Below, piece by piece: positions 1 through 3,000 of a DNA stretch of 64,000 bases (position 1 is the stretch's first letter; the number at the start of each line of letters is the position of its first letter). The stretch is from Escherichia coli. Its GTDB lineage: Bacteria; Pseudomonadota; Gammaproteobacteria; Enterobacterales; Enterobacteriaceae. A program made the position numbers. The stretch lies in NCBI RefSeq assembly GCF_017348835.2, contig NZ_CP071375.1; one strand, 5' to 3'.

Positions 1-3000
1 AAAACATATTCCACCACCGCAATCGCATTACAGCCAGGTGCAGCGGAAAAACCAATTCCCGCCTGCTTCAACCATGCTTCATCGACATGGTCGGTCCCCG
101 CAGTGGCAGTGCCAACAAATTTAATGGGTTTTCCTGCCAGCAAAGATTCATTCACTTTCGTGACCGAACGCACCATCAGCGCATCCGCGTCTGCCAGTTG
201 AGCGACGGGGATTGGACGCCCGGGAACCGCGGTCACCTCACCCAAACGGCTAAATAAGTCGCGGGCATAAGGCATATTTTCATCAACAAGGATTTTCACG
301 TTTGTGTTACCTGTATGAGACGAGAGTTAACCGGACAAGTGTGCCATAATCTCGCGGCCAGGCATACTTGCGAAGATTTCAGGTATAAGGATACGTAATG
401 ATACAACCTATTTCCGGCCCTCCTCCTGGGCAACCACCAGGTCAGGGAGATAACCTGCCGTCTGGCGCGGGCAATCAGCCTTTATCCAGTCAGCAACGTA
501 CTTCGCTGGAAAGCTTAATGACGAAAGTGACCTCACTGACGCAACAGCAAAGAGCAGAACTGTGGGCGGGTATCAGGCACGATATTGGTCTGTCGGGAGA
601 TTCACCGCTGCTTTCGCGTCACTTCCCTGCCGCTGAGCATAATCTGGCGCAACGTCTGCTGGCCGCGCAAAAAAGCCATTCTGCCCGCCAGCTTTTAGCG
701 CAATTAGGGGAGTATTTACGTCTGGGGAATAATCGTCAGGCGGTCACGGATTATATCCGTCATAACTTTGGTCAGACGCCGCTGAATCAGCTCTCACCGG
801 AGCAATTAAAAACCATTCTAACCCTGTTGCAGGAAGGGAAGATGGTTATTCCGCAACCGCAGCAGCGCGAGGCGACCGATCGTCCTTTATTACCGGCGGA
901 GCACAATGCGCTCAAACAGCTGGTGACCAAACTTGCGGCGGCAACGGGGGAACCCAGCAAACAGATCTGGCAATCGATGCTGGAACTTTCCGGGGTGAAA
1001 GATGGCGAGTTAATTCCAGCGAAACTGTTTAACCATCTGGTGACCTGGCTACAGGCGCGTCAGACGCTAAGCCAGCAAAATACGCCAACGCTGGAATCAC
1101 TACAGATGGCGCTAAAACAACCTTTAGATGCCAGTGAACTGGCGGCGTTATCGGCATATATCCAGCAAAAATATGGCCTTTCTGCGCAATCATCGCTTTC
1201 TTCTGCCCAGGCCGAGGATATTCTTAATCAGCTTTATCAACGGCGGGTTAAAGGGATTGATCCGCGTGATATGCAACCGCTGCTTAATCCTTTTCCACCG
1301 ATGATGGACACGTTGCAAAATATGGCAACGCGTCCCGCGCTGTGGATACTGTTAGTCGCGATTATCCTGATGCTGGTCTGGCTGGTTCGTTAGCCCCGAC
1401 GAAATGACAGTATCGTGACAATAATTCCCAGCACTGCAGAGATCGCCCCGGCAAGAAATACCGAAGAGTAACCAAACGTGGTCGCCAGCATTCCCGCCAG
1501 CGGCCCGGAGACGCCGAGGGCGATATCCTGAAACGCGGCGTAACCGCCCAGTGCGGTGCCGCGAACTTGTGAGGGGACGCGTTTAACCACCTCCACGCCC
1601 AGCGCAGGAAAGATAAGCGAACATCCGGCTCCGGTTAACGCCGCGCCCGCTAATGCGCCCCACGCACCCGGGGCTTGCCAGAGCAGCAACAAGCCCACCG
1701 TTTCTACAAGCAGAGAGACTATCGCCACTTTCACGCCGCCAAAACGGTCCGGCATCCAGCCAAACATGACGCGCATCACGACAAATGCCCCGCCAAACGC
1801 GGTAAGAGTAAAGCCCGCCATCGCCCATCCTTTGCTGGCAAAGTAGAGCGAAACGAAAGTCCCGATAACCGCAAAACCAACGCCTTGTAGTGCCAGACCT
1901 AACCCTGGTTTCCAGATAAGCCCGACAACGCTCCACAGCGATGGACGTTCTCCCGCCAGGGCCGGTACTTTGCGCACTGTGCCGTTACAGGCCCACGCCA
2001 GTAAGGGTAATGCCATTGTGGTGATCGCCAGTGCGGCAAAACCGTAATGGCTATGAATCAACAGGCCAAGCGGTGCACCAACAGCGAGGGCACCGTAAAT
2101 CGCCATTCCGTTCCATGACATTACTTTGCCAGAGTGTTTTGGCCCTACGATGCCTAATCCCCAGGTCAGAGCGCCTGTCAGTAACTGGCTTTCACCAAAG
2201 CCAAGAATCAAACGCCCGACGACCAACAGGGCAAATTTGAACGGTGCGGAGACGGGCAAAATCGCCGCCAGCAGCAACGCGCCCCCCGCCAGACCACAAG
2301 CTAACATCCCCTGAAGCGCCGAACGTTTTGCGCCATATTGATCGGCCAGTCGCCCGGCATAGCCACGCGTCAGCACCGTAGCCAGAAACTGAATCCCGAC
2401 GGCAATGCCGACCATGGTATTGCCATAGCCCAGTTCATGATGAACAAACAGCGGGATAACCGGCAACGGCAGCCCTACGGTCATGTAGGTGAGAAAAACC
2501 GCAAAAGCGATGCGGAAGAGCGAAAAATTGGCAGAAGATCGTGTTTCGGTTTGGCTTACAGCAGTCATGCATTACTCCAGAATGCAGCGCAAGGCGAGGA
2601 GTATCCCCGTCTCATCTCTCTGGTTTCAGGGTTACGGTGCGTTGGCAGGAATTAACGCGTACGTCTTTTCAGAAGGAAATCGACAAAGCGGGAAGTTTGC
2701 CTGGAACAGGCGGCGATTGTCAATGATGTGAAAAAGGGAACCATCGGGTTCCCTTTGGCGTTAGTGCCGAATGCCGCATTGGCGCGTAACGTCGGATGCG
2801 ACGCTGGCGCGTCTTATCCGACCTACTCCGACCTACTCCGAATTAATCTTTCAGCTTGCGCATTACCAGCGTGGCGTTGGTGCCGCCGAAGCCGAAGCTG
2901 TTAGACATAACGGTGGTCAGTTCGCGATCGGTCGTTTCGGTCACGATATTCAGACCCGCAGCCTGCTCGTCCAGCTCTTCAATGTTGATGCTCGGGGCGA

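Follow-up and report, generated by a model that had tools for sequence, protein, structure and literature searches.

Genes that converge from opposite strands may overlap at their stop codons. Overlaps of 1, 2 or 3 nucleotides (nt) are impossible with TAA, TAG and TGA, so that the minimum is 4 nt, and only the four-base sequences CTAA, TTAA, CTAG and TTAG permit it. This class was described by Lillo & Krakauer (2007; PMC2174442) as a step at 4 nt in the way the lengths of convergent overlaps are distributed; their 58 genomes yielded 1,890 such overlaps, 1,218 of which were at least 5 nt long, and by subtraction the 4-nt kind makes up about one third. In E. coli, 58 convergent overlaps were counted. 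More recently, ExcludonFinder (2025; PMC12288877) listed the flk-yfcJ pair among 165 convergent excludons of MG1655, pairs being listed when their transcripts overlap in 50% or more of 58 RNA sequencing (RNA-seq) samples. Here we describe the flk-yfcJ junction in a stretch of 64,000 nt from E. coli (contig NZ_CP071375.1 of assembly GCF_017348835.2), hereafter called the window. The overlap is already known: it is annotated in the reference genome, its class was described in 2007 and the pair was catalogued in 2025. With good confidence we regard it as an ordinary, inherited compact junction of two real, unrelated convergent genes, in which the overlap itself need do nothing.

The junction and its two genes

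The pdxB/flk/yfcJ/fabB region makes up the first 4.1 kb of the window. Over 3 kb it is 100% identical to strain PE164, which is collinear with the entire window (four mismatches); its identity to a further 5,422 complete E. coli genomes is 97-98%. Coordinates of the features discussed below are collected in Table 1. Positions 1381-1400 read gctggttcgt tagccccgac; the flk frame ends in CGT TAG, whereas the yfcJ frame, read on the minus strand, ends in CGT CGG GGC TAA, this TAA being the reverse complement of TTA at 1390-1392. The TAG-C with which flk ends is a weak termination context, and the position of the stop is unaffected by it. The sequence and the open reading frames (ORFs) agree with the stop coordinates given for both genes in an earlier note on this DNA. 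That note also had the two stops sharing three nucleotides, and here it needs correction: they share two (1391 and 1392), while the coding sequences (CDSs), stops included, overlap by four. The locus thus has two real protein-coding genes facing each other on opposite strands, joined by a permitted tetramer, TTAG at 1390-1393, whose central TA belongs to both stops.

The chance that one stop or frame has been mis-called, so that no true overlap exists, is in our view negligible. Flk scores 507 bits against NCBIfam NF007987 (cutoff 353) over profile positions 1-338 of 339, and YfcJ 700 bits against NF009048 (cutoff 364) over positions 1-392 of 392. Both proteins are therefore full-length family members above the curated cutoff, and these matches fix the frames of both genes. 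Across about 60 species both C-termini can be aligned to essentially the final residue, and the identical 4-nt overlap is annotated in two independent RefSeq records, PE164 and MG1655 (in the latter with flk at 2437950..2438945 and yfcJ at 2438942..2440120). A mis-called stop, which the earlier note had named as the finding that would do away with the overlap, is rejected by the ORFs, the family matches, the RefSeq agreement and the conserved C-termini, and the overlap is confirmed as real.

Among the 12 convergent pairs of the window, flk-yfcJ is the only one that overlaps. Two further pairs lie almost as close. The stops of ptsP and ypdC (about 59021-59028) are 2 nt apart (CTAA CG TCA; gap at about 59023-59026), and cscA and a lacI-like regulator gene (about 34768-34776) are separated by 7 nt. 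Since these gaps are almost nil, the transcripts of both pairs must also end inside the neighbouring gene. A terminator thus has no room in 3 of the 12 pairs, the remaining gaps ranging from 55 to 394 nt. A junction without room for a terminator is a minority but normal arrangement, uncommon rather than exceptional.

Variation within E. coli and turnover between species

Position 1393 is polymorphic in E. coli, being G in the window and A in MG1655 (TTAG versus TTAA). The change is silent in both genes, turning TAG into TAA in flk and the glycine codon GGC into GGT in yfcJ. Counts of exact 38-mers in complete E. coli genomes gave 1,839 genomes with TTAG and 3,423 with TTAA, together 5,262 out of 5,426.

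To compare species, one genome was taken per species with YfcJ, giving 80 loci besides the window, and both stops were located at each locus. In 28 of these 80 enterobacterial species the gap is exactly -4, with all four permitted tetramers represented; they comprise all Escherichia, both Salmonella entries, most Citrobacter, Intestinirhabdus, a Pluralibacter metagenome-assembled genome and four other genomes. In 31 species flk is convergent with a spacer between the genes, of 4 nt in one case and 26-123 nt in the others, while 11 species carry 0.7-2.4 kb of inserted DNA between flk and yfcJ, and flk is absent within 3 kb of yfcJ in the remaining 10. In a neighbour-joining tree of YfcJ, a single gene rooted at its midpoint, every -4 locus falls into one clade, 29 of whose 31 members (the window included) have the -4 gap. 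In this tree the clade sits nested among spacer-bearing genera; a single loss of the spacer or repeated gains may lie behind this pattern.

The protein ends do not follow these differences. Flk and YfcJ C-termini align to essentially the last residue in the species examined, spacer or not: Flk ends in RPG plus 18 residues, the length of the anchor after the RP(G/A) motif being constant in nearly all species examined, and YfcJ ends in FRRG, FRKx or similar, varying by about one residue between genera. A few additional residues are seen at two loci, L040 and L058. As the protein ends are equal with and without a spacer, the lineages differ by the presence of the spacer and not by ORF extension. 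An origin of the overlap through stop-codon mutation and ORF extension was considered and rejected on the same ground.

The spacers are GC-rich palindromes or pairs of repetitive extragenic palindromic (REP) elements (L012, L020 and L032-L042), and they are not homologous between genera. The Buttiauxella spacer, 31 nt long, has the palindrome GCCACCC..GGGTGGC; in Klebsiella the palindrome is TTCGGCCCG..CGGGCCGAA, and in Leclercia and one relative it is CCCTCTCC..GGAGAGGG. Pairs of REP-like units form the spacer in Enterobacter and Lelliottia, and REP pairs are listed for Leclercia too. Longer insertions are found as well. As judged from ORF translations, one Citrobacter amalonaticus strain (L054, 4181-6469) carries a putative GntR regulator and a phosphotransferase system (PTS) EIIC gene between flk and yfcJ, and Kosakonia (L060, 4210-5733) a putative GH1 6-phospho-beta-glucosidase. 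From these sequences the flk/yfcJ junction looks like an insertion hotspot across genera.

The Escherichia-Salmonella-Citrobacter lineage has no spacer, its stops interlocking in the sole way permitted by the code (N-T-A-N, here TTAG). On the reading we prefer, the overlap persists because Flk, YfcJ or both would acquire a different end if the junction changed, and one of these ends is the Flk membrane anchor. The comparison offers a small, clean example of convergent gene-end turnover, with one old clade interlocked and its sister genera filled with palindromes, REP pairs or genes.

Transcript ends inside the neighbouring genes

The earlier note held that no terminator can lie between flk and yfcJ, and this stands, there being no intergenic DNA; each transcript must consequently end inside the other gene. 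It further held that the two transcripts run antisense into each other, which is borne out for the flk half by a published 3' end 173-174 nt inside yfcJ; the pair also has its excludon listing. In the TRS data set (PMC10687069, Supplementary Data 3 and 4) a plus-strand 3' terminus maps to MG1655 2439115-2439124, where 2439118 (window about 1566) dominates. It is classed there as 'distant primary' for flk, with a 3' untranslated region (UTR) of 174 nt. In the same data, from lysogeny broth (LB), the read-start density past the flk stop (0.11-0.16) equals that within the flk CDS (0.12-0.16 per position), and flk is weakly transcribed.

The terminus lies 3 nt beyond a stable hairpin at 1534-1563, which with a 44-nt window energy of -18.7 ranks among the most stable 1% of such windows along the 64 kb. 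No U tract stands behind this hairpin, the longest U run at the mapped end being 3, and the hairpin is broken by synonymous changes already in the nearest Escherichia relative. Other signals were sought with little result. The terminator-like scan called no plus-strand site after the flk stop, the 140 nt after the stop showed no significant structure (z = -0.04), and Rfam gave nothing at the junction at E <= 1. The sequence after the flk stop was inspected for a rut-like tract rich in C and poor in G, and the C/G ratio of 1.0-1.4 (0.8-1.1 on the other strand) was not diagnostic. The TRS table also gives a start at 2439030, 88 nt upstream of the 3' end at about 1566, for which it cites Thomason 2015. 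By-eye inspection found no convincing -10 or -35 elements for this start (about 1478).

On the yfcJ side, the hairpin at 1306-1335 has a 44-nt window energy of -19.5 kcal/mol, which only 0.7% of the windows along the 64 kb attain. It too is without a U tract, and it is not present in other Escherichia species, Salmonella or Citrobacter. Folding makes it a candidate structure for the 3' end of the yfcJ mRNA. The terminator-like scan labels 1342..1326 on the minus strand, followed by CCATATTTTG, as terminator-like, but the T's of this site fall in the loop of the stronger 1306-1335 hairpin. A promoter scan near the junction gave one weak minus-strand match (1328..1301), no more than shuffled sequences give.

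Transcription of yfcJ appears to be curtailed well before it comes near the junction. In Adams 2021 (supplementary file 2) a Rho-dependent termination region peaks at MG1655 2440043, that is at about window position 2491 and 77 nt into yfcJ. Reads upstream and downstream numbered 236 and 15 without bicyclomycin versus 266 and 98 with it (Rho score 5.8, p = 4e-12). The peak coincides with a hairpin and T run at 2489-2515, an element that may be an ORF-internal attenuator of yfcJ or a stop for read-through from fabB. Within the gene body yfcJ is weakly transcribed (15 reads per 800 nt). Given the Rho-dependent drop about 77 nt into the gene, few polymerases would arrive at the junction from the yfcJ side in LB.

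Taken together, each mRNA ends in the neighbouring gene, the flk-strand RNA about 173 nt into yfcJ and just past the stable hairpin. Its end probably arises when this RNA, no longer translated, is terminated in a Rho-dependent or otherwise non-canonical manner and then trimmed from the 3' side as far as the hairpin. For yfcJ the candidate end would be at the E. coli-specific hairpin 55-85 nt into flk.

A different view of the two hairpins is that they are selected elements for termination or 3' stabilisation, 1306-1335 serving yfcJ and 1534-1563 serving flk, which replace the missing intergenic terminator. Their rank among the 44-nt folding energies and the position of the flk-strand hairpin 3 nt upstream of a mapped 3' end agree with such a role. 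So does precedent, since 21 of the 58 convergent overlaps of E. coli involve a rho-independent terminator that lies inside one gene and serves its partner, in one direction at least (PMC2174442). We nevertheless hold this to be improbable. Apart from the missing U tracts, equally stable hairpins occur, by estimate, about once per 1-2 kb per strand, so that finding one 85-175 nt or less from a stop is hardly a surprise. Conservation is lacking for both, the flk-strand one being broken in the closest Escherichia relative and the other confined to E. coli proper. Moreover, in foldings of the homologous regions of 59 species, an overlap did not go with stronger hairpins than a spacer did (Mann-Whitney p = 0.67 and 0.15). 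Both hairpins are thus probably incidental structures at which 3' ends accumulate, and not selected terminators.

Does the antisense overlap have a function?

The earlier note had it that the antisense transcription could cause mutual interference. As a functional excludon, flk and yfcJ would exclude each other, the antisense overlap acting through polymerase collision, duplex cleavage by RNase III, or both. If true, control of flagellar export would be coupled to the YfcJ transporter. The presence of the pair in the E. coli 'excludome' (PMC12288877) speaks for this idea, as do the at least 173 nt of yfcJ that are covered by flk-strand RNA and the retention of the exact overlap throughout one large clade. 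We consider it unlikely, however, for several reasons. Once both genes are transcribed, overlapping CDSs are by themselves enough for the coverage criterion. With both genes weakly transcribed, and most of the transcription that enters yfcJ stopping about 77 nt in, polymerases should seldom collide and duplexes seldom form. Thirty-one related species carry a palindromic spacer between flk and yfcJ, an arrangement seen in about half of the related genera, and others carry whole genes there, which argues that the overlap is dispensable. Finally, no functional link between Flk (PMC13344023) and YfcJ is apparent; YfcJ is reported to be tied to a cytochrome bo3 oxidase requirement and to pentose efflux. 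The papers searched gave no evidence specific to this pair that one gene lowers the other, and p19 pull-down of double-stranded RNA is uninformative for convergent pairs. Should interference occur after all, the gain would be a further weakly expressed pair on a list of 165.

A conditional version, in which Flk and YfcJ become mutually exclusive upon strong induction of one gene or when PhoB, bound at the Pho box under phosphate starvation, halts polymerases arriving from either side, is less probable still. The Pho box is an intragenic PhoB site in the last yfcJ codons. PMC10294691 tabulates it as 2438961 '(yfcJ)', with yfcJ RNA at 163 vs 187, which reads as no effect of PhoB if the columns are taken, as we assume, to be wild type versus phoB deletion. 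Both TGTCA half-sites of the box are intact in E. coli sensu stricto only. Such a node would tie a flagellar export checkpoint to a transporter implicated in maturation of a respiratory oxidase.

Several points weigh against the ordinary inherited junction that we favour. As a class, convergent excludons show less co-expression in single cells and higher synteny than other neighbour pairs (PMC12288877). The 3' end at about 1566 was significant in just two of three LB libraries (PMC10687069), and it could belong, at least in part, to a short antisense RNA starting at about 1478 and not to flk mRNA. A mapped 3' end of yfcJ was found neither in the Adams 2021 supplements, which give only the 5'-proximal Rho region, nor in those of TRS, which give flk only. 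The two hairpins rank in the top 1% of local stability and one coincides with a mapped 3' end, so that selection confined to E. coli could act on them. All expression data are from LB or minimal medium, and interference could become real where one gene is strongly induced.

In balance, the antisense overlap of the two transcripts exists, and at such low transcription its influence on regulation is most likely slight or nil. The same gene pair, found with and without a spacer, provides a natural experiment on whether excludon overlaps matter.

Other features of the region

Table 1. Features at and around the flk-yfcJ junction (positions in the window)
Feature	Position	Strand	Basis
flk CDS, flagella biosynthesis regulator Flk/Fluke, 331 amino acids, stop TAG at 1391-1393	398..1393	+	ORF list, RefSeq, NCBIfam NF007987
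Last 18 flk codons, ALWILLVAIILMLVWLVR, hydrophobic C-terminal membrane anchor reaching the stop codon	1337..1390	+	translation
Tail-to-tail CDS overlap TTAG, 4 bp, positions 1391-1392 common to both stops	1390..1393	.	sequence
yfcJ CDS, MFS transporter, 392 amino acids, stop TAA read 1392->1390	1390..2568	-	ORF list, RefSeq, NCBIfam NF009048, Pfam MFS_1
11-bp hairpin GGACGCGUUGC-CAUAUUUU-GCAACGUGUCC (yfcJ-sense RNA), inside flk, 55-85 nt past the yfcJ stop	1306..1335	-	folding
Pho box TGTCACGATACTGTCATT, intragenic PhoB site in the last yfcJ codons, 10-27 nt from the junction	1403..1420	-	chromatin immunoprecipitation sequencing (ChIP-seq), PMC10294691
Antisense transcription start inside yfcJ, MG1655 2439030, 85 nt past the flk stop	1478	+	TRS Supplementary Data 4, 'Nearby TSS'
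Hairpin CGCGGCGUAACCGCCCAGUGCGGUGCCGCG (1534-1563) followed by AAC, with the 3' terminus 3 nt beyond the hairpin, inside the yfcJ CDS	1534..1566	+	folding and TRS
Hairpin CCGCATCGCTTTTGCGG and T run TTTTTCTCAC, 54-80 nt into the yfcJ ORF	2489..2515	-	terminator-like scan

Residues of about 120-282 of Flk (window about 755-1243) show a sub-threshold Pfam resemblance to phage Mu GemA (PF06252, 21.4 bits, cutoff 27), and the cytoplasmic domain of Flk is possibly a distant relative of that protein. Between fabB and yfcJ lies a REP-type element (2747-2823, plus strand) that matches Rfam naRNA4 (RF02564) with 47.3 bits, below the gathering threshold of 59.5; a fragment of it also matches an E. coli plasmid. 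Further along the window, an IS3-family element with a programmed frameshift (about 31157-32370) has broken a PfkB-family kinase gene in two, both parts being annotated as pseudogene fragments. The split gene adjoins the sucrose (csc) cluster, and a truncated dsdX lies nearby (about 36002-36220).

Comparison with described systems

The flk-yfcJ junction has the same geometry as the 4-nt stop-stop overlap class (PMC2174442), with the central TA shared and no structural difference. As to origin, stop-codon mutation is favoured as the usual route in that study, whereas flk-yfcJ is to be explained by gain or loss of a spacer with the ancestral protein ends kept.

Like the convergent excludons (PMC12288877), flk and yfcJ are opposite-strand neighbours with overlapping transcripts. 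Strictly, the term excludon also requires that each gene represses the other; by the published data flk-yfcJ fits the descriptive half of the definition, and both genes are weakly expressed. The pair mscL-arfA (PMC10070815) is likewise a convergent E. coli pair on the excludon list, and its 3' antisense overlap is reported to be regulatory. In this respect the two pairs differ: a regulatory effect is reported for mscL-arfA and none for flk-yfcJ.

The model of bidirectional or collision terminators (Ju 2019, as presented by Wang et al., bioRxiv 10.1101/2022.10.23.513370) applies to convergent pairs that need termination in both directions, as flk-yfcJ does. Again as in that account, a hairpin without a U tract stands at the mapped flk-strand 3' end. 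The model involves a single intergenic hairpin and works best for highly expressed genes. In contrast, flk-yfcJ has no hairpin element between the genes that could end both transcripts: there is no intergenic DNA, its candidate hairpins lie within the two CDSs at a distance of about 230 nt, and the genes are weakly expressed. Relatives whose palindromic spacer measures 26-123 bp fit the bidirectional terminator model better than does the flk-yfcJ junction of E. coli.

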